This document shows positions 5,407-28,589 of a stretch of DNA of 32,000 nt, one piece after another. The translations under genes were made by a program, and so were the position numbers. How positions within the stretch are numbered: the stretch's first letter is position 1; the number at the start of each line of letters is the position of its first letter. Source of the stretch: Pseudodesulfovibrio mercurii (lineage in GTDB: Bacteria; Desulfobacterota; Desulfovibrionia; Desulfovibrionales; Desulfovibrionaceae); assembly GCF_000189295.2 (NCBI RefSeq), contig NC_016803.1, forward strand, positions 1,680,001-1,712,000, written 5' to 3'. Below the pieces are notes generated by a model, which was given only the letters and a program-made list of their open reading frames with translations, searched no databases and was not told where the DNA came from.

Positions 5407-5443
5407 AAGGCCTTACGCAGATTGCGTAAGGCCTTTTCCTTTT
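5407..5443 (+). terminator. Rho-independent terminator of the tRNA-Glu transcript
   Basis: Perfect 13-bp stem AAGGCCTTACGCA / TGCGTAAGGCCTT, 3-nt loop, followed by TTTTCCTTTT. Confidence 0.8.
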
Positions 5444-5562: not shown

Positions 5563-6090
5563 TCAGAGCGAATACTGGTATTTGACCGTGATGGCGATGG
5601 TCCAGGACTGTCCCTGGAGGATGGCGGGACGCTTGACGTTGCCGCTGGCGGCTTGGATGGCCTTTCGGGCGGCGGCGTCGAGCCTGGGGTTGCCCGAGGA
5701 GTGGAGCATGACGATGCCGGAGAAGGTGTCGTCCGGGAGGATGCGGAACCGGTAGCGGGCATTGCCGATCAGGTCGTCCAGGTCGCTGCCCGGCGGACGC
5801 CTGTTGTGCTCAACGGCGCTGTGCACCTGGGCCAGGAATCGTTTCAGGGCCTGCTGCCGAAGGCGTCTGGCCGCGTCCTCATGGTCGGTCTTTTCCTGGT
5901 CGCCGGAGACCCCCTGCTCCAGGGAGAGGCCGATGGTCCCCGGCGTGGACACCGAGAGATCGAAGTTCGTCGGGACGACGATGGTCTCGCCGGAAGGGAC
6001 CGGGGTCCGATGCCAGTGCTGTTCCAGCAACAGCCAGTGCAGGAACAGGGAGATGACCAGGCAGGTCCAGATCGTCTGCCGGGAGGTCAC
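5563..6090 (-). CDS. tonB: Short TonB-family energy transducer (N-terminal TM anchor + TonB_C-like domain, no Pro-rich spacer)
   Basis: 175 aa. TM helix IWTCLVISLFLHWLLL carries the S-x3-H TonB signature. The C-terminal beta-rich domain ends ...WTIAITVKYQYSL. Its start overlaps the exbD stop by 4 nt (ATGA, 6087-6090). Confidence 0.6.
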   Translation of the reverse strand: MTSRQTIWTCLVISLFLHWLLLEQHWHRTPVPSGETIVVPTNFDLSVSTPGTIGLSLEQGVSGDQEKTDHEDAARRLRQQALKRFLAQVHSAVEHNRRPPGSDLDDLIGNARYRFRILPDDTFSGIVMLHSSGNPRLDAAARKAIQAASGNVKRPAILQGQSWTIAITVKYQYSL

Positions 6091-6521
6091 TGATCCGTGC
6101 CGCCTGTTTCGCTCTGACGGGTGTTGGTCGCGATGATCAGGTTGTTGAACCCGGTCTTGCGCACCATGTCGATGATCCGCACGAACCGCTCGACCCGCGC
6201 CCGGGGCGCGGATTTGAGCAGGATGTGGTCCGGTTGCAGGGAAACGGGCCGCTCAAAGGTGTTTTGCAGCAGGTGGGTCAGATCGTTCAGGGTGATCTGC
6301 GCGGTATCGCAGAGGATGTCGCCGTTTTCCCTGAGTTCGATTTCCATGGACCTGCCGGTCACGGCCCGGGCCGTCTCGGCATAGGGCAGTTCGATGTCCA
6401 CCCCCTTGGCCGTGAAGACCGCGGAGACCACGAAGAAGATGAGCAGGATGAACACCACGTCCAGCAGCGGGGTGATGTCCGGCGAGGCGGGCCTGGGGGC
6501 GTTGTGTTTGAAGTCGATCAT
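6087..6521 (-). CDS. exbD: Biopolymer transport protein ExbD/TolR
   Basis: 144 aa. DITPLLDVVFILLIFFVVS single TM with the conserved Asp, typical of ExbD/TolR. 4-nt overlap with exbB (6518-6521). Confidence 0.88.
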   Translation of the reverse strand: MIDFKHNAPRPASPDITPLLDVVFILLIFFVVSAVFTAKGVDIELPYAETARAVTGRSMEIELRENGDILCDTAQITLNDLTHLLQNTFERPVSLQPDHILLKSAPRARVERFVRIIDMVRKTGFNNLIIATNTRQSETGGTDQ

Positions 6522-7108
6522 GGCTCCGCATCCGGAACGGGGATCAGGCGCGCCGCGTGCTGCATGGCATGGGCGATCTTATCGTATTCACGACAGAACC
6601 AGCGATGGGCCAGCACGGCCGGGATGGCGATGCACAGCCCGGCGGCCGTGGTCAGCAGGGCCTGCCAGATGCCCCCCGCCAGCACGGTGATATCCACGTC
6701 CGCCGACGACGCCAGCCGGGAAAAGGCGTTGATCATGCCCAGCACCGTGCCCAGCAGTCCCATGAGCGGGGCCGTGGCCGCGGCCGTGGACAGAAAGTCG
6801 AGCCGGGCATTGAACCCGAACAGGACCTCGTCACCGGCGGCCTGGATGGCCGCCTCGCGGTGCGCCCTGTCCGGGGAGAAACAGGCCGCGAAAAAGGGGG
6901 CAAAGGTCGGGGCCGTTTCCTCCACGCCGTCCATGGCGGCCGCCCTGCCCTGCGTGCGGAAGGTTTCGAGCAGGGTGTCCAGCGCCTGGCCGGAGGGGAA
7001 ACGGCGGGTGGTGAAGACCACGAGGCGTTCCAGGATCACGGCCAGGGCCGCCACGGACAGGATGAGCAGCGGCCACATCATGAAGCCGCCCAGTTGCAGA
7101 AGACTCAT
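6518..7108 (-). CDS. exbB: MotA/TolQ/ExbB proton-channel protein
   Basis: 196 aa, three TM segments. Conserved C-terminal block APLMGLLGTVLGMINAF...GGIWQALLTTAAGLCIAIPA. Its ATG overlaps the TGA of the upstream GTPase gene (ATGA at 7105-7108). Confidence 0.9.
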   Translation of the reverse strand: MSLLQLGGFMMWPLLILSVAALAVILERLVVFTTRRFPSGQALDTLLETFRTQGRAAAMDGVEETAPTFAPFFAACFSPDRAHREAAIQAAGDEVLFGFNARLDFLSTAAATAPLMGLLGTVLGMINAFSRLASSADVDITVLAGGIWQALLTTAAGLCIAIPAVLAHRWFCREYDKIAHAMQHAARLIPVPDAEP

Positions 7109-8931
7109 GCGTCCGCTCCTTGCAGTCCTTCCAATTGGGGAAGGTTGACGAGGTTCTTGCCGATGGCCACCAGGAATCCCTCCTGGTCGAAGTCGTCGCC
7201 CAGGGAGGAGAGCTCGTGGCGGCCGCAGACATACTGGACCACCACGGGCTGCGGAGAGTCCGCGAGGTGGACTATCCCCTTGAGCCGAAACACGGATTCC
7301 GGCAGGCCGTCCAGGGCCTGCAGAAGCCGGCCCCGGTCAAGGGCGGCCGGATAGAGAAACCGCTGCGAGGTGAAGCCCTCGTGGGTGTGGTCGTGGCGGT
7401 GCGCGTGGGGCCTGGCGGGCAGGAGCTCCGGGCGCTGCTCGAACGGGTCCGTGTCGTAGAGGCGGCCGGGGTTGACGGCCCCGAATTCCGTTTCCACCAC
7501 CACGGCGCGGTGATTCAGTTGGCGAAGGGTCGTGCGCAGGGCCGCCAGTTCCTCCTTGTCCGCCAGGTCGCATTTGTTCAGCAGGATGATGTCCGCCGCC
7601 GCGACCTGGTCGCGGGCGATCTCGTTGTCGGCGAGCAGTTTCGGGGCGTTGGCCGCGTCCACCAGGGTGGTGATCGAGTCCAGGCGCACCAGGGGACGCA
7701 GCGTCTCCAGCTCGTTGAGAATATTGAATGGATTGGCCAGCCCGGTGGCCTCAAGCACGATGACCTTGGGGGAGAACCGGGCCTTGAGCTGTTCGATGCC
7801 CTTGGAGAGGTTGCCCGCCAGGGTGCAGCAGACGCACCCCTCGTCCAGCTCCACGATGGAATCGTCGCCTTCCAGCAGCCTGCCGTCCACGCCCGTCCGG
7901 CCGATCTCGTTCTGGATGATGGCGACCAGTTCATCGCGGGCCGCGTGGTATTCCAGCAGTTGATTGAGGAAGGTGGTTTTCCCGGAACCGAGGAAGCCGC
8001 TGAGCACGATCAGGCCGGGGCGGCTGTCAAAGGCCGGGGCATAGGCCTGGTCGAGGGAGAGGGCCCGCAGGTCGTGGGTCTTCCAGAACAGGGCGTCGTC
8101 CAGCGGGGGCGGCAGCGTGTCCCTGGATGCGGGCCCGGCGGCCGTTTCGCACCGGGCCGGGGCGAACGCGGCCATGGCGGCCGGTGTTTCCGGGTCGCCC
8201 CAGCAGAGCATGTCGGTGATCCGCTCGATGCCGTCGTCAAGGGGCGTCCGCCTGCCCGCGCCGTCGAAGACGATGCCGTGGTCCGCACTGCGGATGCGTC
8301 CGACCCGGCACGGCGGCTCTTCCAGGCTCCGGGTCACGGCCGCGCCCAGCAGCAAAAGAAAATCCAGGCTGATCGCATGGGCCGGGTAGTCCTCCTCGGC
8401 CTCGCCGGGGGAAATGACCCATTGGTTGTCCGGCGTCCGCACGCCGTCCCCGGCGATGCTCAGTTTCCGGTTCAACGCGCTGCATTGCAGGATCAGCCCC
8501 TTTTCCTCCGGGGTGAGCGAGGCCGACAGCCCGCCCATGCGGAAGGGGGCCATCCATTCGCCCATGGCCGTGAAGCGACGGACGGTCTCGAGATAGTCCG
8601 GCTGGACGGCGGCCATGTTCGCGGCCAGGGACATGGACTCCAGCAGCGATTCGTCGGCCGCCGGGAAATAGTACAGTCCGAGACGGGCGTGCTGTCCCTG
8701 ATCGTCCGCCCAGGCGCTTTCCGTGGCCAGCCCGAAGACGCCCGGCCGGGCGTGGATCTTCAACGTCCAGCCCTGGGGCGCCCTGGGGCACACGGCCATG
8801 CCCTTCCAGCCGACCAGCCGTTTGAACTCCCGGTACTGGCAGGCCGCCAGCAGGCAGTTGGTCAGCATTCCGGGCAGGTCGATCCGCCTGTTCGGGCTGT
8901 GTTGATTCGGCAGTACGGCTGTGAGTTGCAT
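7105..8931 (-). CDS. Two-part protein: uncharacterised N-terminal domain of about 300 aa fused to a G3E-family COG0523 (CobW/YjiA/ZigA-like) metallochaperone GTPase
   Basis: 608 aa. The C-half has P-loop GFLGSGKTTFLNQLL, metal motif GCVCCTL, NKCDL (G4), a His-rich linker PHAHRHDHTHEG and a CobW_C-like tail. I recognise no motif in the N-half. GAGG SD before ATG 8931. Confidence 0.85.
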   Translation of the reverse strand: MQLTAVLPNQHSPNRRIDLPGMLTNCLLAACQYREFKRLVGWKGMAVCPRAPQGWTLKIHARPGVFGLATESAWADDQGQHARLGLYYFPAADESLLESMSLAANMAAVQPDYLETVRRFTAMGEWMAPFRMGGLSASLTPEEKGLILQCSALNRKLSIAGDGVRTPDNQWVISPGEAEEDYPAHAISLDFLLLLGAAVTRSLEEPPCRVGRIRSADHGIVFDGAGRRTPLDDGIERITDMLCWGDPETPAAMAAFAPARCETAAGPASRDTLPPPLDDALFWKTHDLRALSLDQAYAPAFDSRPGLIVLSGFLGSGKTTFLNQLLEYHAARDELVAIIQNEIGRTGVDGRLLEGDDSIVELDEGCVCCTLAGNLSKGIEQLKARFSPKVIVLEATGLANPFNILNELETLRPLVRLDSITTLVDAANAPKLLADNEIARDQVAAADIILLNKCDLADKEELAALRTTLRQLNHRAVVVETEFGAVNPGRLYDTDPFEQRPELLPARPHAHRHDHTHEGFTSQRFLYPAALDRGRLLQALDGLPESVFRLKGIVHLADSPQPVVVQYVCGRHELSSLGDDFDQEGFLVAIGKNLVNLPQLEGLQGADA

Positions 8932-8950
8932 GGCGCGACCTCGTTGGGGC

Positions 8951-8981
8951 GGCCCGGCCCGCCGAGACGGCGGACCGGGCC
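8951..8981 (-). promoter_or_regulatory. GC-rich hairpin in the 5' leader of the COG0523-fusion gene (12 of 13 bp paired, 5-nt loop)
   Basis: GGCCCGGCCCGCC gagac GGCGGACCGGGCC. It lies 20-50 nt upstream of the start codon and has no U-tract, so it is not a classical terminator. Confidence 0.4.
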
Positions 8982-9123
8982 TGATGGGGTGGAGGTTAGA
9001 TACGGGTATTCCCAGGGTGTGGGCGAAGGGCGATCCGCCGCGAGGCCGCGTCGGCCTCGAACGGGTTTCGCGTCCGGCGGATCATTCTTTCGCACATCCT
9101 GTTGTCGCTTTCGTCCGTGCCGG

Positions 9124-10293
9124 TCAGCAGCCGAAGCTGATTTTGTCTCCGTTGCCGAGATAGTCCTTGGAGGCCGAGCGGAAACGGGCGGTCCCGCGCA
9201 CCACCGGATAACCGGCCTCGATGAACTTCTTGGCCGTCAGGTGGCCGGTGCAGTGGTTGCAGCCGATGCGCTCGAAGCCCCATTGGCCGAGGGAGATGAC
9301 CAGGTCGTCGTATTTGGGGTCCCAATCCTCGAAGGGAGAGATGTGGAGCCCGCCGTAGATGCCGTAGAACCGGTCGTTGTCGTACTTGAGGTTGGCGTGG
9401 GCGAAGTCCGCGAACTTGAGGATGCCCTGGTGGCAGCAGCCGGAGATGAGCAGCAGCCCCTTGTCCTTGATGTTGAAGGCCAGCGAGGTCTCGCCGAACA
9501 CGCGGTTGATGATGGGCACGTCGAACTTGAGCAGCGCCATGCCCGGGATGATCGGGGTGATGGGCTTGTCCGCGATGGTCATTTCGCCCTTGTAGCCGCA
9601 GTCCTTGATGTACTGGAGGCCTTCCTTGTAGAAGCCGTCGTGCACGTACAGGGGGATGCGGTTGTCGTACTTGACCGTGACCGGCAGGCCCCAGAAGTGA
9701 TCCCAGTGCTCATGGGAGATGAACAGGGCCTCGATCTGCTGCTCCTCGAGCATCTTGTCGATGCCCTCGCGCTTGAAGCTGTTTTCCATCCACTCGTAGG
9801 ACCAGCCGGTATCCAGCAGGTACTTGTGGATCGTGCCGTCCAGGTCCTCGACCTCCAGCAGGCAGGAATAGCCGCCCGGGTTCTCCGGGTGCAGGGCCAG
9901 CTTCTTCTGGAGATCCCAGGCCTTTTGCAGGTCGTTGGGCAGGAGTTCCTTGATGGAGGCGATACCCTCGTCGTAGGAGCCCTTGGCCGATCCCTTGCCG
10001 TTGGCGAACGGGGCCCAGTTCAGGGTGTACTGGTTGACCAGCAGGCCGCCGGCCTCGTGGATGTCGCCGATCAGGTGGGCGTTGTTGAACCAGCTCGTCT
10101 CGGAGATGTTGGTCACCCGGACGCTACGGCAGGCGCCGAAGTCCTGCATCTTTCTTTCGACCTTGGGCAGCCGGTTGTATGCCGAGGAGGTATAGGAGTA
10201 CATCCCCATGCTGGCGAACGCACCGGCGACCAGGCCGGTGGCGGCGCCCTTCACGAAGTCGCGTCTGCTGATGTTTTTCTTGTCGTTGCTCAT
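9124..10293 (-). CDS. Tat-exported MBL-fold (metallo-beta-lactamase superfamily, COG1237-like) metallo-hydrolase
   Basis: 389 aa. Twin-arginine signal MSNDKKNISRRDFVKGAATGLVAGAFASMG. HxHxDH metal motif FISHEHWDHFWG. AAGGAG SD before ATG 10293. Confidence 0.85.
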   Translation of the reverse strand: MSNDKKNISRRDFVKGAATGLVAGAFASMGMYSYTSSAYNRLPKVERKMQDFGACRSVRVTNISETSWFNNAHLIGDIHEAGGLLVNQYTLNWAPFANGKGSAKGSYDEGIASIKELLPNDLQKAWDLQKKLALHPENPGGYSCLLEVEDLDGTIHKYLLDTGWSYEWMENSFKREGIDKMLEEQQIEALFISHEHWDHFWGLPVTVKYDNRIPLYVHDGFYKEGLQYIKDCGYKGEMTIADKPITPIIPGMALLKFDVPIINRVFGETSLAFNIKDKGLLLISGCCHQGILKFADFAHANLKYDNDRFYGIYGGLHISPFEDWDPKYDDLVISLGQWGFERIGCNHCTGHLTAKKFIEAGYPVVRGTARFRSASKDYLGNGDKISFGC

Positions 10294-10314
10294 TATATTC
10301 TCCTTGTTCCCCGC

Positions 10315-11718
10315 TTAGTTGATGACGGTGAAGTTGGCACCGACCCAGGGCAGGGCGCTGATGATGACGAAGTAGAACAGCACCCCGGCGCACAACCCCA
10401 CGGCGAGCCCCTTGGCCAGGCCCGGCGTCCAAAAGACATCGTGGGCCACGACCTCTTCCTCGACCTCCTCGAGCTCGATTTCGGTCTTGGGCACGGCCTT
10501 CCAGCCCGGCCAGCCGTCCATGAACCAGACATTGATCAGGAAGATGTTGATCAGCCAGATCATCGGGATCATGGGGAACTGCTGGGGATGGGAGAATCCC
10601 TTCTGGGTTCCCAGGAACAGGTGGGAGGTCTTGTAGTAGATGATGTAGACAACGGCGGCCAGGGCGGCGCTCAACAGGGTGCGGATGCAGACGTTGACCG
10701 GGCGGCTGAACTTGGTCGGCCAGTTGTTGCAGTAGAAGGTCAGGTACAGGGAGGGCACGAGCCAGAAGATGGCCATTTCGCCGACGTGCAGCCAGCGCCA
10801 GTCCGGAGCCATCAGACGGCGGGTGCCGCGGATGGTCTCGCCCCAGACCAGATCCTGCGCGTAGTACAGGAAGAAGCACAGGCACACGGCGATGGCGATG
10901 ATGCCGAAGAAGGAGGCGATCCTGCGCAGGGCGTTGTTCTTGATCAGGTTGAAGGGATAGCGTTCCCATATGGTCTCGAAAAGCCAGACCACCACGGTGC
11001 AGCACATGATCCAGGCGATGTGGAAGTTGCCGGACACCGTGTTGGCGAATTTTTCCCAATAAGGCGGACAGATGGCCGTGAACTTCTGCCAGGGGTAGAA
11101 GAGGATGGCCATATGCGAATGCATGGTCAGGAAGTAGACGATCTTGCTCAGGAAGAAGGTGACCACCGCGATAGTGATGCCGCGGGCGGGCTGTTCCAGC
11201 TTCTGCCAGGGCGCGTTTTCGCAAGCCACCACCCAGCTCGGCGAGAGCCAGGAGGCGATGGCGGCGAACATCATGATCGCCTCGGCCGCGTATTCAATGG
11301 AATAGAAGTCGGTGATGCCCATGGCTTCGAGCCTGGCCGGGTTGAAGTAGGCGATGCCGAAGTTGCCGAGGATCTCGACGAAGAAGCCCTTGATGAGGAT
11401 GACCATGGCCGCCACGCTGACGAGCGTGAGCACCGCACCCTTGACCAGGGGATGCGTGTTTTTGAGCCAGGACCGCTTGAAGGGCCAGAAATCGAAAATG
11501 TAGGCGACCCAGATGAAGAGGATGAGGAGCCAGCGGCAGACCATGTAGCCCACATAGGGGGTATACATGCGCATGAGCCCGCGCGGATCCTGGAATATCC
11601 ACCAGGTGGCGTAGAAAAAGGCGAGGATGACGATCGTATTCACCAGCGCGGGGATAGGCCCGCTCCAACGTTTGACCAGCTTCCGACTCTCAAGGTAGCT
11701 GACACTACTGCTGTCCAT
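10315..11718 (-). CDS. Polytopic inner-membrane protein (about 11 TM helices, very Trp/Phe/Tyr-rich), family not recognised
   Basis: 467 aa with regularly spaced hydrophobic segments. AGGAG SD. It is 21 nt upstream of the MBL gene, so they are likely co-translated as one operon. Confidence 0.75.
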   Translation of the reverse strand: MDSSSVSYLESRKLVKRWSGPIPALVNTIVILAFFYATWWIFQDPRGLMRMYTPYVGYMVCRWLLILFIWVAYIFDFWPFKRSWLKNTHPLVKGAVLTLVSVAAMVILIKGFFVEILGNFGIAYFNPARLEAMGITDFYSIEYAAEAIMMFAAIASWLSPSWVVACENAPWQKLEQPARGITIAVVTFFLSKIVYFLTMHSHMAILFYPWQKFTAICPPYWEKFANTVSGNFHIAWIMCCTVVVWLFETIWERYPFNLIKNNALRRIASFFGIIAIAVCLCFFLYYAQDLVWGETIRGTRRLMAPDWRWLHVGEMAIFWLVPSLYLTFYCNNWPTKFSRPVNVCIRTLLSAALAAVVYIIYYKTSHLFLGTQKGFSHPQQFPMIPMIWLINIFLINVWFMDGWPGWKAVPKTEIELEEVEEEVVAHDVFWTPGLAKGLAVGLCAGVLFYFVIISALPWVGANFTVIN

Positions 11719-11781
11719 TTTACACTCCTACCCAAGTTGGCCGGTCGGGGGTGATCGGTCCCCGAGCCGTAACTCTGCTTG

Positions 11782-11997
11782 TTACAATGTTGTTGTGGGG
11801 GCAGATTTCGAAATCATGGTTTCCAATTGTTCAAGGGTAACGGTAGCCGGATCGATGCCCATGGCCATGGCGCGGAGGAACAGCTCCTTTTCCGTCAAGG
11901 GCGCGGTCGTTTCCGTTGATTGTGCAGTGCCCCGGAGTCGCTCCCCCGTCTGGCCACCGAACGGCATCAATCGGCTGAAAAATTCTCTTCGTTTCAT
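11782..11997 (-). CDS. Small (71 aa) protein with an N-terminal RR motif (MKRREFFSRL) but no hydrophobic h-region; hypothetical
   Basis: The ORF sits between the GntR gene and the membrane gene (gaps of 33 and 63 nt). It has a plausible helical C-part (ELFLRAMAMGIDPATVTLEQLETMI). SD is weak and third-position GC is lower than in neighbouring genes. Confidence 0.5.
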   Translation of the reverse strand: MKRREFFSRLMPFGGQTGERLRGTAQSTETTAPLTEKELFLRAMAMGIDPATVTLEQLETMISKSAPTTTL

Positions 11998-12030: not shown

Positions 12031-12711
12031 TCAGTATTCCGGCAGGACCAGCCGACGCAGGGCCTGCACGCACTCCTTGGCGAGCTGTTCGGCGCTGTCG
12101 GCCTGGCCGCCCTTGAGCGCGTTGAACAGCTCGACATGGTAGGCGAACAGGGAGTCCACCTGCACCTCGGCGAGCCCTCCCCCGCTGTTCGAAAGGGTGG
12201 CGGAAGCCATCCCCAGCTCCTTGAGGAACAGCGTGAGGTAGTCGTTGGACGCGATCTCGGCCAGGGCGAGATAGAAGTAGATGAAGCGGTGTCCGATGGT
12301 CGGCAGGTCCGAGTTGACGATGGTCTGGCCGATGTCGGACGTGGCCTGCTCCAGCCTGGCGATGTCCGGGGCGGAGAGCTTGCCCGCCTGGGAGCGCGCC
12401 AGGCCGGGCGCGATCATGCTCAGCGCCTCGATCACCTGACGGAACGCGGTCGCGTTCGTGCGGACGCGCAGGCTTTCCCAGTTCAGGCGACCCTCCAGGC
12501 TCTTCAGGTAGCAGCCGCTCTTCTCCCGAATCTCGAGATAGCCCATGGATTCGAGGTTGCAGAGGGCCTCGCGCACGGTGTTCCGGCTTGTATCGAACAT
12601 GGTCGCCAGCCGGCGTTCCCCGGGCAGCTTGTCGCCGATTGAAAAGGCCCCGCCGTTGAGCATGTCCACCATCTTGCGGCAAATAATGGGTCGTTGTGTT
12701 GTTGTCTGCAT
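12031..12711 (-). CDS. GntR-family transcriptional regulator, FadR subfamily (wHTH + FCD ligand-binding domain)
   Basis: 226 aa. wHTH signature GDKLPGERRLATMFDTSRNTVREALCNLESMGYLEIRE. All-helical C-terminal domain. No obvious SD upstream of ATG 12711, so the start is uncertain; the alternative is M14. Confidence 0.85.
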   Translation of the reverse strand: MQTTTQRPIICRKMVDMLNGGAFSIGDKLPGERRLATMFDTSRNTVREALCNLESMGYLEIREKSGCYLKSLEGRLNWESLRVRTNATAFRQVIEALSMIAPGLARSQAGKLSAPDIARLEQATSDIGQTIVNSDLPTIGHRFIYFYLALAEIASNDYLTLFLKELGMASATLSNSGGGLAEVQVDSLFAYHVELFNALKGGQADSAEQLAKECVQALRRLVLPEY

Positions 12712-12713
12712 AT

Positions 12714-12726
12714 CTGGCCCAACCAG
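12714..12726. promoter_or_regulatory. FadR/GntR-type operator-like half-palindrome CTGGCCCAACCAG, abutting the GntR start codon
   Basis: Matches the t.GT-N3-AC.a architecture used by the FadR subfamily, with one arm mismatch. It is part of a ~20-bp direct repeat with the site at 12820. Confidence 0.45.
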
Positions 12727-12750
12727 TTTGAGGTTACGACTTTCGACTCA

Positions 12751-12764
12751 CTGTTTTAAAACAG
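12751..12764. promoter_or_regulatory. Perfect 14-bp AT-rich palindrome CTGTTTTAAAACAG in the GntR upstream region
   Basis: Read directly from the sequence. It lies in a markedly AT-rich intergenic island (12712-12995). Confidence 0.35.
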
Positions 12765-12819
12765 CATTACGGCTTCAAAAATGTATATGGCAAGGGTAAA
12801 CGCAAAAAAATGTTTCAAA

Positions 12820-12832
12820 CTGGTCCAACCAG
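12820..12832. promoter_or_regulatory. FadR/GntR-type operator candidate CTGGTCCAACCAG (perfect TGGT-N3-ACCA palindrome)
   Basis: Perfect inverted arms CTGGT/ACCAG. The flanks (AAACTGGTCCAACCAGATTTGAG) repeat the sequence at 12712-12733. Confidence 0.5.
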
Positions 12833-12997
12833 ATTTGAGAACAAGAAATCGAAAAGCGGGACATTTTTCGTGAACCGCCTCAATTTTCTATGGAATTATG
12901 GGAAAAAACCGATTGTCCGTGGAGAACGCGAAAAAACGGCGTCCGCTCCGGTTACGGAACGGAAACAATCGGAGGGGCCGAGGTGGTTGGGCCAGAA

Positions 12998-14275
12998 TCA
13001 GCGCTTTCGGGCCAGGCAGCGTTCCAGGTTGACGAGGAATTCCTGGTGCAGTTCCTTCAGCGGGGCGTCGGAATCCGGATCATAGCTGTCGGGCTCGGTC
13101 GAGCAGAAGATCAGCACGTAGGCCAATTCGCCGTCGGTGAAAAACGGCTGTGCGTAATAGGAGCGGATGCCGTGGGGGATGAACAGGGCCCAGTCGATGG
13201 CCTTGATGCTCTTGGATGTCTCCGCCACCACATGGCAGGGCTGGTTGAAACGCAGGATGCTCTCCGCGATGGACCCCTCATAGGGATGCGCGAGTTCTTC
13301 GGGGTCCTTGTCGAACGGAGCGCCCACGCCGGTGACCGAGACGACGTTCCTGTTGATGAAGATGCGCGACAGGAGCAGGCCGTTGGTGGGGGAGCGCCTG
13401 GGGAGGGCCTTGAGCAGGGCCTTGAGCAGCGTTTTGACCGAGGCGCAGCGCCGCAGGGAGGCGACGGAAAATCCGGTGGACACGGTGTCGTTGCCCCTCA
13501 CGGGCAATCCCTTGCAGGCCGTGCAGTTGTTGTGATGGTACAGCGTCATCCAGAGGAGATTGTCCTCCTGCCGCGCGATGGCCTGGATGTGGGCGGTACA
13601 GAGATGGCTCTGGCCCAGCGCGTCGGTTATGAGCAACCCCCCGTTCCAGTGGTCCGAAAAGATGAGTTCCTCGTAAATCTGATACAGGGCGGTGTCCGGA
13701 TTGTCGCGCAGCAGGTCCTGGAGGGTCAGGCGCGACAAGGCCTGGTCGTCGTGCCCCAGGAATTGCCGGGCGGCCTGGTTGGCCAGATGGACGGTCCGGT
13801 CCACGAAACGGACCAGCAGGACGGGGTCGTCCACCAAGTCGATCCTGTCCGCCAGCTTGGGGCTCCCGGAGGCCTTGAGGATGGTTTCCGCATGGACGGA
13901 GATGTCCATGAGAATCCCCAGGGAGCAACGCGGGTAGGCCGGGTCGGGCATGCCCATCAGTTTGAACCATTTCATCTGCCCGGATTCCGTGCGCACCCGG
14001 AAGGAACAGGCCGTTCTCCTGCGGCTGAGGATCAGCTGATGGCAGGAGCGGAATTGCTGCCTGTCCTCGGGGAGGATGACCTCCTGGGGAATCTGCGGAT
14101 TCTGCAGCACGGCCCTGATCCGTTCCCCCTCGGGGGAGGCCGCGTATTTGTTCAGGAACGTGATCTCGTTGCTGACCACGTCGATTCGCCAGACAATCCC
14201 GGGAAGTTCTTCAAAGTAATTGGCCAGGATTTTTTCTTCGGGATGGCTGTCCGGTTTTACACTGAGATCCGGCAT
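12998..14275 (-). CDS. Stand-alone sensor protein: two PAS-like domains + C-terminal GAF-like domain, no recognisable output domain
   Basis: I place the start at ATG 14275 (MPDLSVKPDS...) with AAGGA SD; the ORF-track extension to 14674 is Arg/Pro-rich junk. PAS-like segments: ELPGIVWRIDVVSNEITFLNKYAA... and VLLVRFVDRTVHLANQAARQFLGH... No HisKA, HATPase, GGDEF or HTH motifs. Confidence 0.7.
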   Translation of the reverse strand: MPDLSVKPDSHPEEKILANYFEELPGIVWRIDVVSNEITFLNKYAASPEGERIRAVLQNPQIPQEVILPEDRQQFRSCHQLILSRRRTACSFRVRTESGQMKWFKLMGMPDPAYPRCSLGILMDISVHAETILKASGSPKLADRIDLVDDPVLLVRFVDRTVHLANQAARQFLGHDDQALSRLTLQDLLRDNPDTALYQIYEELIFSDHWNGGLLITDALGQSHLCTAHIQAIARQEDNLLWMTLYHHNNCTACKGLPVRGNDTVSTGFSVASLRRCASVKTLLKALLKALPRRSPTNGLLLSRIFINRNVVSVTGVGAPFDKDPEELAHPYEGSIAESILRFNQPCHVVAETSKSIKAIDWALFIPHGIRSYYAQPFFTDGELAYVLIFCSTEPDSYDPDSDAPLKELHQEFLVNLERCLARKR

Positions 14276-14671: not shown

Positions 14672-15365
14672 CATTGTATTGTTTTGTTCTGTTGCCCGGT
14701 TTTTTCCCGTTATCTAGGGTGAGAATGAACCAAAAGTCCACCCGTTCGGCCGGGCGGCGGCGACGCCGTCACGAACGGGTGCGGGATCGCCTTCCGGGGA
14801 AGGGCTCCGGGAGGCTGGCCCGTGTGGATCGGCCGCAATGCAGGGGAAGGTATGCTCGCAGTCCGACACGCGAAACACGTCCCACAGAACAAGCCCGCCG
14901 AGCCGGCGTTCCCGGCCCGGCGATGCTGAGGGGGAGCCCATGGGCACCAGGTCCGGTTCCCTTCGATCCCCGCTCCCGCAAGCGCCGCCTCGCCCCGCGC
15001 CGTCTCGCCCCGCGCCCGGTCGAAGGCCGGTGCGGCCGCGCGCTGACGCCTCCTCGTCCTCCCCGCCTGTCCCGAGAGCAACCCGCCATGGCGGGTTTCA
15101 CCATACCGTCGATGGAGGAATCCATGTCCGCATCCATCCGTAACAAGCCGTCATCCCTCCCGTCGGCCGCCTGTGTCCCGTTTTCGGGACTCGGGCACGC
15201 CATGGCGGCGGTGAAGGCCGTGGCCCGATACGCCCGCCCCGACCCGGAGACCGCCCCTGCCCTGCGGCCGGTCCCCGGACCCGCCGGGGCCCGTCGCCAC
15301 GACCTGCTGCGCCGTCTTTGCCGGGAACCACGGGCCGGATGACACACCAAACCAAAGGAGTGGGT

Positions 15366-18300
15366 ATGACCGTCAACAGAAGAAGCTTTCTCAAACTGGC
15401 CGCAGTGACCGCCGTTTCGTCGGCGTTCTGCGGGCTGGGATTCGGGTCCGAGGCCCTGGCCGTGGACCGGATCGCCATGCTCCAGCCCCAGTGGAGCAAA
15501 CAGACGACCTCGGTCTGCTGTTACTGCGCCGTGGGCTGCGGCCTGATCGTCAACACCGACCTCAAGACCAAGCGGGCCGTCAACGTCGAGGGCGACCCGG
15601 ACCATCCCATCAACGAGGGGGCCACCTGCGCCAAGGGCGCGTCCATCTGGCAGCTGGCCGAGAACGACCTGCGGCCGAAGCGCCCCATGTACCGCGCGCC
15701 CCATGCCACGGAATGGAAGGAGGTCTCCTGGGAGTGGGCCCTGGGTGAAATCGCCAAGCGGGTCAAGAAGACGCGCGACGCCAGCTTCACCGAAAAGAAC
15801 GCCAAGGGGCAGGTGGTCAACCGCTGCAACGGCCTGGCCTCGGTGGGCTCGGCGGCCATCGACAACGAGGAGTGCTGGACCTACCAGGCCATGCTCCGCG
15901 CCCTGGGCCTGGTCTGGATCGAGCACCAGGCGCGCATCTGCCACAGCTCCACGGTGGCGGCCCTGGCCGAGAGCTTCGGACGCGGGGCCATGACCAACCA
16001 CTGGAACGACATTGCCAACAGCGACTGCATCCTGATCATGGGCAGCAACGCGGCCGAGAACCACCCCATCTCCTTCAAGTGGGTGACCGAGGCCATGACC
16101 AGGGGGGCCAAGCTCATCCACATCGACCCGCGCTTCACCCGCACCTCGGCCAAGGCGGACCTCTACTGCCAAATCCGTGCGGGCTCGGACATCGCGGTCC
16201 TCGGCGGGCTGATCAAGTACATCCTGGACAACGACCTGATTCAGAAGGACTACGTGGTCAGCCACACCAACGCGACCTTCGTGGTCGGCGACAAGTACGA
16301 CTTCCATGACGGGCTGTTCAGCGGCTACCACAAGAACGGCGACGACGCGGACTACGCGGGGGCCTACGACAAGTCCCAGTGGGCCTACAAGACGGACGCC
16401 CAGGGGCTGCCGGTGCGGGACGAGACCCTGACCGACCCCCGGTGCGTGTACAACCTGCTCAAACGGCACTACGCCCGCTACACCGTGGACAAGGTCGTCA
16501 GCGCCTCGGGCATCGACCGCGACGGGCTGCTCGAATTCTACAAGAGCTTCGCGGCCACGGGCAAGCCGGACAGGGCCGGGACCATCATGTACGCCATGGG
16601 CTGGACCCAGCACACCGTGGGCACGCAGTACATCCGGACCATGTCCATGGTCCAGTTGCTGCTCGGCAACATCGGCGTGTCCGGCGGCGGGGTCAACGCC
16701 CTGCGCGGCGAGTCCAACGTCCAGGGGTCCACGGACCACTGTCTGCTGTGGCACATCCTGCCCGGCTACCTGGCCATGCCCAACGCCTCCCTCTCGACCT
16801 ACGAGGCATACGTCGCCGCCAAGGCCAAGCCGCACCTGCAAGGGGCCAAGGACCCCAAGAGCGCGGCCTGGTGGCAGTACTACCCGAAATACATGTCGAG
16901 CTTCCTCAAGGCCATGTACCCCGAGGCCACGGCCGACCAGGCCTACGCCTGGCTGCCCAAGGCCGAGGACGGCACGACCTACACCTGGCTCCAGCTCTTC
17001 GAGGCCATGGACAAAAAGGCCTTCACCGGCTTCTTCGCCTGGGGCATGAACCCGGCCTGCGGCGGGGCCAACGCGGGCAAGAACCGGCGGGCCATGGCCA
17101 ACCTGGACTGGATGGTCAACGTCAACATCTTCGACAACGAGACCGGCTCCTTCTGGCGCGGGCCCGGCGTGGACCCGAAGAAGGTCAAGACCGAGGTCTT
17201 CTTCCTGCCCTGCTGCGTGTCCATCGAGAAGGAGGGGTCCATCACCAACTCAGGCCGCTGGATGCAGTGGCGCTACCAGGGGCCCGACCCCAGGGGCGAG
17301 TCCAAGTCCGACGGCCACATCATGACCGAGCTGTTCGAGGCCGTCCGCGCCCTGTACGCCAAGGAGGGCGGCGCCTTCCCCGAGCCCATCAGTAATCTGG
17401 CCGTGGAGATGTGGAAGAAGGACGGGCAGTACGACTCCAACCAAGTGGCCAAGCTGATCAACGGCTACTTCCTCAGGGACGTGACCATCAAGGGCACGAC
17501 CTACAGGAAGGGCACGCTGGTGCCGAGCTTCACCCTGCTCCAGGACGACGGCTCCACCAGCTCGGGCAACTGGCTGTACTGCAACTCATACACCGAGCAG
17601 GGCAACATGGGCGCGCGCCGGAGCACCGCGCAGACCCCGGAGCAGGCCAGGATCGGGCTGTTCCCCAACTGGTCCTGGTGCTGGCCGCTGAACCGGCGGA
17701 TCATCTACAACCGCGCCTCCTGCGACAACACGGGCAAGCCCTACGCCCCGCAGAAGCCGGTGATCACCTGGAACGGCGAGAAGTGGGTCGGCGACGTGCC
17801 GGACGGCGGATGGGCCCCGGGCACCAAGTACGCCTTCATCATGCAGCCCCACGGCCACGGCCGCATCTTCGGCCCCGGCCGCCAGGACGGCCCCTTCCCC
17901 GAGCACTACGAGCCCATGGAGACCCTGTTCAAGACGCACGAGTTCTCGGCCCAATTGAACAACCCCACCGCCCTGCGCTTCGCCCACGAACCCATGGCCG
18001 TGGCCGATCCCAAGTATCCTTACGTGGTCACGACCTACCGCGTGACCGAGCACTGGCAGACCGGCCTGATGACCCGCCACACCCCGTGGCTGCTCGAAAC
18101 CATGCCGCAGATCTTCGTGGAGATGAGCGAGGAGCTGGCCAGGGAAAAGGGCATCGCCAACGGCGAGAAGGTCACGGTCGAGTCCATCCGGGGCAGCATC
18201 TGGGCCATCGCCATCGTGACCAAGCGGATGCACCCGCTGACGGTCATGGGCAGGACCGTGTACCAGATCGGCCTGCCCTGGTGCTTCGGCTGGCAGATGC

Positions 18301-18413
18301 CCCACGACGGCAGCGGCGGCGACTCCGCCAACCTGCTGTCCCCGGCCGTGGGCGACCCCAACACGGGCATCCCCGAAACCAAGGTCTTCGTGGCCAACGT
18401 CCGCAAGATGTAA
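15366..18413 (+). CDS. fdhA: Periplasmic formate dehydrogenase catalytic subunit (Mo/W-bis-PGD), Tat-exported, cysteine-type (no Sec codon)
   Basis: Start at ATG 15366 (AAAGGAG SD). Tat signal MTVNRRSFLKLAAVTAVSSAFCGLGFGSEALA. N-terminal 4Fe-4S motif CCYCAVGCG...C. Active-site stretch EHQARICHSSTV has TGC (15939-15941) where Sec-type enzymes carry TGA. The ORF is uninterrupted over 1015 aa. Confidence 0.93.
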   Translation: MTVNRRSFLKLAAVTAVSSAFCGLGFGSEALAVDRIAMLQPQWSKQTTSVCCYCAVGCGLIVNTDLKTKRAVNVEGDPDHPINEGATCAKGASIWQLAENDLRPKRPMYRAPHATEWKEVSWEWALGEIAKRVKKTRDASFTEKNAKGQVVNRCNGLASVGSAAIDNEECWTYQAMLRALGLVWIEHQARICHSSTVAALAESFGRGAMTNHWNDIANSDCILIMGSNAAENHPISFKWVTEAMTRGAKLIHIDPRFTRTSAKADLYCQIRAGSDIAVLGGLIKYILDNDLIQKDYVVSHTNATFVVGDKYDFHDGLFSGYHKNGDDADYAGAYDKSQWAYKTDAQGLPVRDETLTDPRCVYNLLKRHYARYTVDKVVSASGIDRDGLLEFYKSFAATGKPDRAGTIMYAMGWTQHTVGTQYIRTMSMVQLLLGNIGVSGGGVNALRGESNVQGSTDHCLLWHILPGYLAMPNASLSTYEAYVAAKAKPHLQGAKDPKSAAWWQYYPKYMSSFLKAMYPEATADQAYAWLPKAEDGTTYTWLQLFEAMDKKAFTGFFAWGMNPACGGANAGKNRRAMANLDWMVNVNIFDNETGSFWRGPGVDPKKVKTEVFFLPCCVSIEKEGSITNSGRWMQWRYQGPDPRGESKSDGHIMTELFEAVRALYAKEGGAFPEPISNLAVEMWKKDGQYDSNQVAKLINGYFLRDVTIKGTTYRKGTLVPSFTLLQDDGSTSSGNWLYCNSYTEQGNMGARRSTAQTPEQARIGLFPNWSWCWPLNRRIIYNRASCDNTGKPYAPQKPVITWNGEKWVGDVPDGGWAPGTKYAFIMQPHGHGRIFGPGRQDGPFPEHYEPMETLFKTHEFSAQLNNPTALRFAHEPMAVADPKYPYVVTTYRVTEHWQTGLMTRHTPWLLETMPQIFVEMSEELAREKGIANGEKVTVESIRGSIWAIAIVTKRMHPLTVMGRTVYQIGLPWCFGWQMPHDGSGGDSANLLSPAVGDPNTGIPETKVFVANVRKM

Positions 18414-18423
18414 GGAGAACGCA

Positions 18424-19149
18424 ATGAACGGTAAATCATTCCTGGTGGACCTGACCCGCTGCACCGCCTGCCGCGGCTGCCAGATCGCCTGCAAGCAATG
18501 GAAGAAGCTCCCGGCCGAGAAGACCACCAACTGGGGCTCGTACCAGAACCCCAAGGACCTGTCGTCCACGACCATCCGGCTGGTCCGCTTCGAGGAGGCC
18601 GTGGAGGACGGCAAGCTGTTCTGGCTGTTCTTCCCGGAGCAGTGCCGCCACTGCGTGGACGCCCCCTGCTCCACCGTGCCGGACAACCCCGAGGCCATCA
18701 TCCACGATCCCGAGACCGGGGCCGTGGTCTACACCGAACTGACGGCCAAGGAGGACGGCGAGTCCATCCGCATGGCCTGCCCCTATGACATCCCCCGGGT
18801 GGACCCGGTGACCAAGGTCGTGAACAAGTGCGACATGTGCATCGACCGGGTCCGGGCGGGCAAGCTCCCGGCCTGCGTCCAGGCCTGCCCCACCGGGACC
18901 ATGAACTTCGGCGACCGCGAGGACATGCTCAAGCTGGGCCAGGAGCGGCTCGCCGCGGCCAAGAAGAAGTATCCCAAGGCCATGCTGGTGGACCCGGACT
19001 CCACGCGGGTCATCTACCTGGCGGGCGTCTCGCCGGACAGCTACTCCAAGTACCTGGAGTCGGACGCCTCGGACGCCATGCCGGACAAGATGTCCCGGAA
19101 GCGGTTCCTGGCCGGGCTGGGCGCCCGCGCGCGGACCATGCGTTCCTGA
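18424..19149 (+). CDS. fdhB: Formate dehydrogenase iron-sulfur (beta) subunit, multiple 4Fe-4S ferredoxin-type clusters
   Basis: 241 aa. CTACRGCQIAC, CRHCVDAPC, CPYDIP, CDMCIDRVRAGKLPACVQACPTG. AAGGAG SD 6 nt before the ATG. 10 nt downstream of fdhA. Confidence 0.9.
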   Translation: MNGKSFLVDLTRCTACRGCQIACKQWKKLPAEKTTNWGSYQNPKDLSSTTIRLVRFEEAVEDGKLFWLFFPEQCRHCVDAPCSTVPDNPEAIIHDPETGAVVYTELTAKEDGESIRMACPYDIPRVDPVTKVVNKCDMCIDRVRAGKLPACVQACPTGTMNFGDREDMLKLGQERLAAAKKKYPKAMLVDPDSTRVIYLAGVSPDSYSKYLESDASDAMPDKMSRKRFLAGLGARARTMRS

Positions 19150-28495: not shown

Positions 28496-28589
28496 GGAAG
28501 CGTTTCGGCACCGGTGTGTCGCTTGGTCTTCAAAACCAATGTGTGGCAGTGATGTCACGGGCAGGTTCGACTCCTGTACGCTTCCGCCA
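28496..28589 (+). tRNA. selC: tRNA-Sec (selenocysteine tRNA, anticodon UCA), CCA encoded
   Basis: 8-bp acceptor GGAAGCGT/ACGCTTCC. 6-bp D-stem with 4-nt loop. Anticodon loop CTTCAAA. Long variable arm GTGGCA-GTGA-TGTCAC. The 3' part GGGCAGGTTCGACTCCTGT matches E. coli selC almost base for base. Confidence 0.95.

Follow-up and report, generated by a model that had tools for sequence, protein, structure and literature searches.

A probable membrane-bound metalloenzyme system of anaerobic bacteria at a locus of Pseudodesulfovibrio mercurii

What task could unite an exported metallo-beta-lactamase (MBL)-fold protein, a polytopic membrane protein and a 71-amino-acid (aa) protein with a twin-arginine (RR) motif when their genes lie side by side? 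This question was raised by the minus strand of a 32,000-nucleotide (nt) stretch of the Pseudodesulfovibrio mercurii genome (NC_016803.1, 1,680,001-1,712,000), the whole of which is called the window here and to which all coordinates are relative. An earlier reading of this DNA, made from the sequence alone (the sequence-only reading), had described a triad of co-directional genes of 71, 467 and 389 aa downstream of a FadR-type regulator, and the sizes, the orientation and the gaps (33 nt between gntR and the small RR protein gene, 63 nt between the latter and the gene of the membrane protein, MEM, and 21 nt between MEM and the gene of the MBL-fold protein, hereafter MBL) were as claimed. The three genes do co-occur, but the module has at least four core parts, the fourth being a domain (the N-domain) that is fused here to a COG0523 GTPase. 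The operon is probably a new membrane-bound metalloenzyme system of anaerobic bacteria. Its central features are the following.

10315 to 11718, minus strand: MEM, 467 aa, aromatic-rich, with 11 transmembrane (TM) helices in an AlphaFold2 (AF2) model, conserved in 81 loci
9124 to 10293, minus strand: MBL, a predicted metalloprotein of 389 aa of the COG1237 type, exported by twin-arginine translocation (Tat), from Pfam, TIGR01409 and PDB matches
11782 to 11997, minus strand: small RR protein, 71 aa (MKRREFFSRL...), its family detected with a hidden Markov model (HMM) from 21 seeds
8032 to 8931, minus strand: N-domain, the N-terminal 300 aa of a 608-aa open reading frame (ORF), a new family
7105 to 8031, minus strand: COG0523 GTPase half of the same ORF (PF02492, 2.3e-44; PF07683, 1.5e-11)

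A conserved module in two clades

We compared the loci of the closer homologues (clade A), for which 162 species genomes matched MEM, the best 80 were taken and counts were made over 81 loci. MEM was 62-93% identical across these loci, which come from at least ten phyla (Desulfovibrionales, Desulfobacterales, Alphaproteobacteria, Bacteroidales, Leptospirales/Spirochaetota, Planctomycetota, Acidobacteria, Deferribacterales, SAR324, Hydrogenedentota and others). The co-occurrence check that the sequence-only reading had proposed bore it out: the MBL gene was located downstream of MEM, on the same strand and within 90 nt, in 81/81 loci, and the HMM located the small RR protein gene directly upstream of MEM, in the same orientation, in at least 64/81, while tblastn detected few. 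The N-domain and the GTPase were encoded by one ORF in 72/72 clade-A loci. This gene arrangement is far beyond chance.

MBL orthologues were 53-96% identical, and the identities of MEM and MBL were strongly correlated over the 81 loci (r = 0.95). Median identities fell from 66% for MEM and 63% for MBL to 44% for the COG0523 half, 31% for a sensor-like protein encoded upstream, 30% for the N-domain and 29% for GntR, a gradient which indicates that the MEM-MBL pair is the constrained core. The conservation of MEM at 62% identity or more across phyla points to a tightly constrained function. Altogether the module was present in at least 162 species genomes and about 190 metagenomic contigs of at least ten phyla, mostly of anaerobes.

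An exhaustive representative search for the MEM family returned 161 clusters at 50% identity, mostly fragments; the full-length members formed one tight 467-aa cluster and about 15-20 divergent clusters of 400-430 aa without the last TM helix, and the search shows the family to be small and isolated. The contexts of the divergent members and 80 metagenomic loci made up the set of the sister clade (clade B), with counts over 85 loci; the metagenome scan used a 5-sequence alignment, an earlier 12-sequence alignment having given no conserved stretch. Clade-B MEMs were 26-36% identical to clade-A MEM, clade-B MBLs were 34-45% identical to that of the window, and the clade-B small RR proteins (90-96 aa) were recognised by the clade-A HMM at E values of 2e-8 to 2e-6. 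MEM was present in all 85 loci, a Tat-MBL in 76, a stand-alone N-domain in 77 and the small RR protein in at least 52. MBL usually preceded MEM, and the genes of the small RR protein and the N-domain came next, in either order; this reversal of the MBL-MEM pair implies that its adjacency outlasts rearrangement. The genes of the small RR protein and the N-domain are adjacent in clade B and overlap in L091 and L092, the two clade-B loci read closely, so that these two proteins probably work together. No COG0523 gene, other nucleoside triphosphatase (NTPase) gene or TonB gene was found in the clade-B module of the 85 loci.

These comparisons show that the four core parts (MBL, MEM, small RR protein and N-domain) are co-inherited in two deeply diverged clades; the module of four is the older form, to which clade A added the GTPase. 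The proposal that the downstream COG0523 gene belongs to the system was upheld, and its N-domain, which also stands alone where the MBL-MEM pair has no GTPase, is a core component. The last part of clade-A MEM (residues ~412-467, encoded by 10315-10470), which comprises an acidic linker and the 11th TM helix, is absent from all clade-B members; it goes together with the N-domain-COG0523 fusion.

Other genes accompany the module in some lineages. A small signal-peptide protein with a CxxCH motif (in 31/31; KNC..CH.S[IV]ADPE) was encoded in 31 of the 85 clade-B loci, usually as the first gene, directly upstream of MBL (for example L090:6501-6776 and L091:6977-7312). In L141, L142 and L158 another CxxCH protein is encoded between MBL and MEM, and a COX1 fragment follows the N-domain gene. 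NifX-like proteins (PF02579, sub-threshold) recurred in both clades, with 22 loci in clade B and 7 in clade A. Between the MBL and cobW genes of 16 clade-A loci we observed a family of about 130 aa with a signal peptide and lipobox (IPEMKE...C(D/E)M.KP...GITYYT.ES.VEKC...GWK.GKIVKF.WGGPKGGKVEY), without Pfam match, which was single in L027, L029, L038, L042, L044, L048, L056, L058, L067 and L079 and tandem in L022, L034, L045, L037 and L067; it looks like a lineage-specific periplasmic accessory of the system. At the same place, two Desulfobacterales loci carry a tandem DsrC-like protein (PF04358 twice, 1.5e-42; L042:5840-6568 and L037:5977-6708), a possible hint of sulfur chemistry.

The core proteins and the GTPase

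The sequence-only reading had described MEM as rich in Trp, Phe and Tyr, with about 11 TM helices and of no recognised family, and each of these points held. The three aromatic residues make up 18.2% of MEM, with 26 Trp, and searches with MEM and its distant relatives gave no sequence match in Pfam or NCBIfam (E<=0.1) or in the PDB. A first AF2 model from close homologues only had a predicted local distance difference test score (pLDDT) of 64 and gave meaningless Foldseek matches; it was replaced by a model made with distant relatives (pLDDT 86.2; predicted TM-score, pTM, 0.87), which has 11 TM helices. Comparison of this good model with 350,542 PDB chains by Foldseek gave nothing at E<=0.001 (best E 0.1), with TM-scores of about 0.2 for the ten best-ranked chains, nowhere above 0.29, and 0.11-0.12 for ApcT and AdiC. 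ActC and ActF of alternative complex III were the top matches of the low-confidence model only (E 0.2) and not of the good one. MEM defines a new family that matches no solved structure; MBL is tied to it in 81/81 loci, and MEM offers a candidate new membrane-protein fold.

Helices TM2-5 and TM6-9 of MEM proved to be an internal duplication (hhalign 92%, E 6e-7), and their alignment indicates that the repeats are parallel. The JGI and UniRef label of MEM, "AAT family amino acid transporter", was rejected, there being no profile match, no APC fold and a parallel 4+4 repeat; APC transporters have a 5+5 inverted repeat. The loops of the AF2 model, counted by hand, contain 18 Lys and Arg on one side versus 9 on the other, which by the positive-inside rule would place the N-terminus in the cytoplasm. 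The conserved charged residues are E142 in TM4, R308, H311 and E314 in TM8, and H200 and H202 at the end of TM5, and on the modelled topology this cluster would lie in the periplasmic leaflet. An M-H-S-H-M motif, whose HxH part is at least 80% conserved, would be at the periplasmic end of TM5, and the conserved WPF/YPF and NAPW/NNWP loops would be on the cytoplasmic side. Conservation on both faces of the model fits an arrangement with MBL outside and the N-domain and small RR protein inside.

MBL was claimed to be an MBL-fold protein with a Tat signal and an HEHWDH site, and the profile searches agree. It passed the Pfam cut-offs marginally (PF12706, 27.8 bits for a cut-off of 27; PF00753, 25.0 for 22.7), matched TIGR01409 with 22.5 bits (cut-off 16.7) and matched the PDB entries 7dck (5.7e-13), 2p4z (1.4e-7) and 3h3e (2.2e-5). 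Its signal is SRRDFVKGAATGLVAGAFA, with the motif SRRDFVK and a predicted cleavage site AFA|S, and the uncharged h-region after RR has 23 residues (family median 22). The Tat motif was present in 81/81 orthologues (75 RR and 6 RK), so that the claim of Tat export extends to the family. The RK forms belong to Leptospirales/Spirochaetota (L029, L036, L038, L056, L075 and L080), and their signals are otherwise intact (NRKDFLKGAA...). Besides HEHWDH (194-199), MBL has GCCH (285) and NHCTGH (346) sites, and H194, H196, D198, H199, C286, H288, H317, C345, H347 and C348 were at least 94% conserved in both clades.

By these sequence features MBL can be assigned to the COG1237 subgroup of the metallo-beta-lactamase superfamily, and the nearest relatives with a solved structure are likewise of the COG1237 type, without an assigned function. 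It shares the HxHxDH, GC.H.G, GG.H and HC.G motifs of this group (7dck, 2p4z, 3h3e; archaeal MJ0301, K06897). In contrast to these relatives, which have 248-284 aa and whose matches start well inside MBL, past the signal peptide, MBL has some 100 aa more, all its orthologues bear a complete Tat signal, and it is tied to a membrane partner. The JGI and NCBI label of MBL, pterin-aminobenzene-phosphate synthase (EC 2.5.1.105, K06897), was rejected because of the exported location (Tat signal in 81/81, in bacterial hosts) and because no pterin or methanopterin genes were found in any neighbourhood examined. Two misleading database labels, those of MEM and MBL, are thereby corrected.

In the small RR protein family an M-x-RR-[DE]-F-F motif at the N-terminus and a helix motif at the C-terminus (L..AM..GIDPAT / EA.RLGLDP) are conserved, with a variable part between them, and the RR-[DE]-F-[FL] motif is conserved across phyla. 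The ratio of nonsynonymous to synonymous changes (pN/pS) against close relatives was 0.29-0.59. The longest uncharged run after RR was 9 residues in the 71-aa protein, with a homologue median of 5 versus 22 in the MBL signals, and the protein matched no Pfam family and no TAT_signal profile; it does not have the features of a Tat substrate. That the 71-aa ORF arose by chance was rejected on its conservation across phyla, and it is a real gene. The sequence-only reading had called its RR motif vestigial or non-canonical for want of an h-region: the missing h-region and the non-canonical character were confirmed, but a motif conserved across phyla is not vestigial. The family thus presents a conserved twin-arginine motif without a signal-peptide body.

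In the 608-aa ORF (7105-8931), the cobW domain begins at residue 308. The GTPase half contains a Walker A motif (GFLGSGKTT), GCVCC and a His-rich stretch (HAHRHDHTHE), and its best PDB match was YjiA (1nij, 3e-25). It belongs to no characterised subfamily, its scores being below every NCBIfam equivalog cut-off (CobW 125, ZigA 115 and YjiA-type PRK11537 107 bits versus 332, 600 and 361). A profile search with the N-domain found only cobW fusions (560-608 aa) and stand-alone "hypothetical" proteins of 300-335 aa (about 300-345 aa among the clade-B homologues); the N-domain had no Pfam match, and a PDB profile search gave nothing below E 0.39. Its only invariant residues are G, P, Y and W, none of them catalytic-looking, and from these structural-type invariants we infer a role as adaptor or chaperone. 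Three of the four core proteins (MEM, small RR protein and N-domain) therefore lack both a Pfam or NCBIfam family and a relative of solved structure.

Operon layout, regulation and neighbouring genes

The order of the operon is gntR, small RR protein, MEM, MBL, N-domain-COG0523, exbB, exbD and tonB, with 192 nt between MBL and the COG0523 gene. The elements that flank the core are listed below.

12998 to 14275, minus strand: sensor-like protein of about 425 aa with two PAS-like regions, a conserved C-terminal GAF-like domain and no output domain
12942 to 12963, minus strand: terminator-like hairpin 3' of the sensor gene
12714 to 12995, no strand assigned: predicted promoter/operator region, AT-rich, upstream of gntR, with three palindromes CTGGTTGG(A/G)CCAG
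12031 to 12711, minus strand: GntR/FCD (FadR-subfamily) regulator, 226 aa, first gene of the operon (PF00392, 1.1e-15; PF07729, 7.1e-12)
6518 to 7108, minus strand: exbB, from Pfam
6087 to 6521, minus strand: exbD, from Pfam
5563 to 6090, minus strand: tonB, from Pfam
5407 to 5435, both strands: bidirectional terminator-like hairpin with a 13-bp stem, 3' of tonB

A winged helix, an FCD domain and palindromes of the TGGT-N3-ACCA type place the regulator in the FadR/FCD group of the GntR family; it reached no NCBIfam equivalog cut-off, its neighbours there being LldR, NanR and UxuR. The palindromes upstream of gntR (CTGGT-N3-ACCAG at 12714-12726, 12820-12832 and 12983-12995, the last with one mismatch) numbered three versus 0.14 expected by chance, and the same palindrome lies just upstream of gntR in L002, L003, L004, L007, L009, L011, L014 and L016 (Desulfovibrionales and Alphaproteobacteria). 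They are likely GntR operators, as predicted from sequence, and could serve to define a regulon. Control of the system by the GntR protein, which the sequence-only reading had proposed as the sensor of the substrate, is plausible in view of these palindromes but does not cover the family, gntR being upstream of MEM in only 51 of the 81 clade-A loci. Other loci use a sigma-54 PAS activator in place of GntR and the sensor (16 clade-A and 42 clade-B loci; for example L114:901-2262, minus strand). The PAS region of these activators has a Cys-rich motif (C-x9-C-x3-C in clade B and C...C..C......C..C in clade A), and they could be redox- or metal-sensing.

The sensor ORF is open to 14674, and its start was placed at the ATG at 14275, which has an AAGGA motif 5' of it, on the basis of homologues and of the gene call in Maridesulfovibrio salexigens (425 aa; genome CP001649, in which MEM is ACS78424.1). 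Pfam gave weak PAS matches only, and the GAF-like assignment comes from sequence inspection, with no match to a GAF family. Homologues of 410-440 aa, usually encoded just upstream of gntR, were found in 49 of the 81 loci by tblastn and in 45 by ORF clustering. The hairpin at 12942-12963 sets the sensor gene apart from the gntR operon, the hairpin at 5407-5435 is the likely operon end, and only weaker terminator-like hairpins lie between the two. Shine-Dalgarno sequences are strong for MEM and MBL and weak for the small RR protein gene. The exbB start overlaps the COG0523 stop (ATGA), and exbB-exbD-tonB follow the COG0523 gene directly in about 20 of the 81 loci (Desulfovibrionales, Alphaproteobacteria and Leptospirales/Spirochaetota); no TonB-dependent receptor gene accompanied them in the cluster neighbourhoods examined, including L082 and L084.

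The sequence-only reading had also taken the block to be less GC-biased at third codon positions (GC3) than its neighbours, and possibly acquired. Neither statement survived, GC3 being 0.92 for MBL, 0.89 for MEM, 0.88 for GntR and 0.87 for the COG0523 gene (0.87-0.92) versus 0.87-0.96 in the neighbours; the lower total GC of the block is due to codon positions 1 and 2, that is, to amino-acid composition. Recent horizontal acquisition argued from GC3 was rejected, and close Pseudodesulfovibrio relatives keep the cluster at 93-96% identity. MEM was not found on any plasmid.

A search of the window for riboswitches and other RNA elements found only two tRNAs, and a sigma-54 promoter scan of the window gave no more matches than chance and none near the operon. 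A defence system was rejected since PADLOC anti-phage models gave no matches except weak helix-turn-helix ones for GntR. A 1544-aa plus-strand ORF antisense to the cluster (7120-11754) was rejected as a stop-free frame typical of high-GC DNA. Elsewhere in the window, 15318-19149 (plus strand) encode a molybdopterin oxidoreductase (1031 aa, formate-dehydrogenase-like domains, ORF uninterrupted) and a 4Fe-4S dicluster subunit, and a tRNA-Sec gene lies at 28496-28585 (plus strand; Rfam, 79.6 bits); the presence of both in one window may reflect a selenoprotein context.

Candidate functions of the system

We favour, with moderate confidence, the reading that the operon encodes a membrane-bound metalloenzyme system that faces the periplasm and has four core parts. 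In this model, apo-MBL would be folded and loaded with metal in the cytoplasm, where the N-domain would act as a client-specific adaptor and the COG0523 GTPase as metal insertase, and the folded holo-MBL would leave via Tat and dock on MEM in the periplasm. The MEM pocket (E142, H200/H202, R308, H311 and E314) would pass substrate, protons or electrons between the membrane and the metal site of MBL, and the small RR protein would be a fourth subunit or a maturation or targeting cofactor. Expression would be controlled by the GntR/FCD repressor through CTGGT-N3-ACCAG, with the PAS/GAF-like protein as a probable co-sensor.

Exported metalloenzymes that have a membrane partner and a chaperone are known as a type, while the families that make up this one have largely never been described, and no publication on the cluster was found in the literature library searched. 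In DmsABC with DmsD and in PsrABC (complex iron-sulfur molybdoenzyme family), a Tat-exported enzyme sits on a membrane anchor and has its signal bound by a chaperone in the cytoplasm. The present system resembles these in its Tat-exported cofactor-bearing subunit, its cofactor-less polytopic membrane partner and its cytoplasmic maturation protein encoded in the same operon, and MEM resembles NrfD/PsrC in having two 4-helix repeats plus extra helices. It differs in that the enzyme has the MBL rather than the molybdopterin fold and there is no Fe-S subunit, in that MEM has no Pfam NrfD match and no significant Foldseek match to ActC/ActF or any other chain, and in that the N-domain bears no relation to TorD/DmsD and is fused to a COG0523 GTPase.

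Two other systems share single aspects of this arrangement. EfeUOB combines the Tat-exported peroxidase EfeB with the permease EfeU; as here, the genes pair an enzyme that Tat sends to the periplasm with a polytopic protein of the inner membrane, and both systems have a connection with metal handling, but no sequence or fold similarity, no EfeO-like protein and no metal-sensing regulators were found in the present case. ComEC/Rec2 is a membrane channel fused to an extracytoplasmic MBL domain, and thus also has an MBL-fold domain at the outer face of a multi-TM protein; it differs in that the present proteins have no Pfam Competence or DUF4131 match, MBL belongs to another subfamily, and the operon context is a regulated one of metabolic type. 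The GTPase half resembles Nha3 (of Fe-nitrile hydratase), CobW (of CobNST) and YjiA in its cobW and CobW_C domains, CxCC and His-rich stretch, and as for Nha3 the COG0523 gene adjoins a presumed metalloenzyme client (PMC11672702, section 5.1.4.3); in contrast to these three, it carries a 300-aa N-terminal domain that also occurs as a separate gene, and its presumed client is Tat-exported. In that 2024 review (PMC11672702), bacterial COG0523 clients are given only for CobW and Nha3 and client identification is described as largely open, and the system would supply a genomically locked, testable client for a COG0523 metallochaperone.

Several observations weigh against this reading. The complex, its metal and its activity are postulated from sequences and a structural model, and the function given to the small RR protein is conjecture. 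The HxHxDH motif of MBL is of the ordinary hydrolase type, and an internal duplication with intramembrane charged residues, as in MEM, is also typical of transporters. No haem or Fe-S motif was found in MBL or MEM and no cytochrome gene in the clade-A operon, and the matches of the clade-B CxxCH protein to Pfam Cytochrome_CBB3 are sub-threshold (3e-4 to 0.02). The N-domain has no sequence or profile similarity to the Tat signal-binding chaperones TorD, DmsD and NapD. ExbBD-TonB and GntR/FCD are commoner with nutrient uptake and catabolism.

The chemistry is the least secure element of the metalloenzyme model. Within this model, the cytochrome-like CxxCH gene of clade B and the NifX-like genes of both clades incline us towards redox-linked chemistry rather than simple hydrolysis, a tentative preference that we would not put at an even chance. 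A bolder version is somewhat unlikely. In it MBL-MEM would be the catalytic core of an unrecognised class of membrane-bound metalloenzyme with a new membrane fold of two parallel 4-TM repeats, metallated before Tat export by COG0523 with its client-specific adaptor domain and wired to c-type cytochromes or the quinone pool; if true, anaerobic bacteria of sediments would have a new redox module for respiration or detoxification, and no bacterial COG0523 protein before this one would have had an exported client.

The periplasmic position of MBL and the TonB genes are also open to a scavenging or catabolic interpretation, which we consider rather improbable. A compound would enter through TonB-dependent outer-membrane uptake (with the receptor encoded elsewhere), MBL would hydrolyse it in the periplasm, MEM would be a dedicated secondary transporter that imports a product and GntR would sense this product, and the N-domain-COG0523 protein would only mature the hydrolase. 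The canonical HxHxDH of MBL, the duplication and conserved intramembrane E, R and H residues of MEM (as in many transporters), the control of carboxylate catabolism that is typical of GntR/FCD proteins such as the NCBIfam neighbours LldR, NanR and UxuR, and the translational coupling of exbB-exbD-tonB in about 20 loci are all consistent with it. However, no catabolic genes were consistently linked in the neighbourhoods examined, the cluster has no TonB-dependent receptor gene, and the cytochrome-like and NifX-like genes would be left unexplained. MEM itself argues against a solute carrier: no other protein of the set is so well conserved (62% or more across phyla), which is unusual for such a carrier, its model has TM-scores of 0.1-0.2 with ApcT, AdiC, MFS, MATE and other transporters, and its 4+4 repeats are parallel and not of the inverted 5+5 APC type.

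The system could instead serve metal acquisition or trafficking, in which a metal or chelate taken up by the TonB route would be processed by MBL (with cytochrome reduction in clade B), pass through MEM by way of its HxH, E, R and H residues and be handed over to N-domain-COG0523 on the cytoplasmic side, a layout like that of EfeUOB. The GCVCC and His-rich stretch of the GTPase, the ExbBD-TonB linkage, the M-H-S-H-M motif of MEM at the periplasmic end of TM5 and the conserved cytoplasmic loops of MEM, which could dock the N-domain, would suit this route, and a Fur-family-like gene was noted by sequence inspection in 4 loci. Clade B, however, lacks COG0523 and TonB genes but retains all four core parts, the regulators are GntR/FCD or sigma-54 PAS proteins and not Fur, Zur or NikR, no riboswitch was found in the window, and simple ion uptake needs no such highly conserved Tat-exported enzyme; we regard this explanation as quite unlikely.

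NosZ is exported as an apo-protein. In a scheme of trans-membrane metallation, which we judge very unlikely, MBL would likewise be exported apo and MEM would be an assembly factor that delivers metal with N-domain-COG0523 and the small protein. MEM is conserved on its two faces, neither the N-domain nor the small protein has a signal sequence (both are cytoplasmic by sequence), and the GTPase could energise delivery, all of which accords with it; but the enzyme to be served is less conserved than MEM, the clade-B module has no NTPase, and the COG0523 review (PMC11672702) gives no precedent for action via a membrane conduit.

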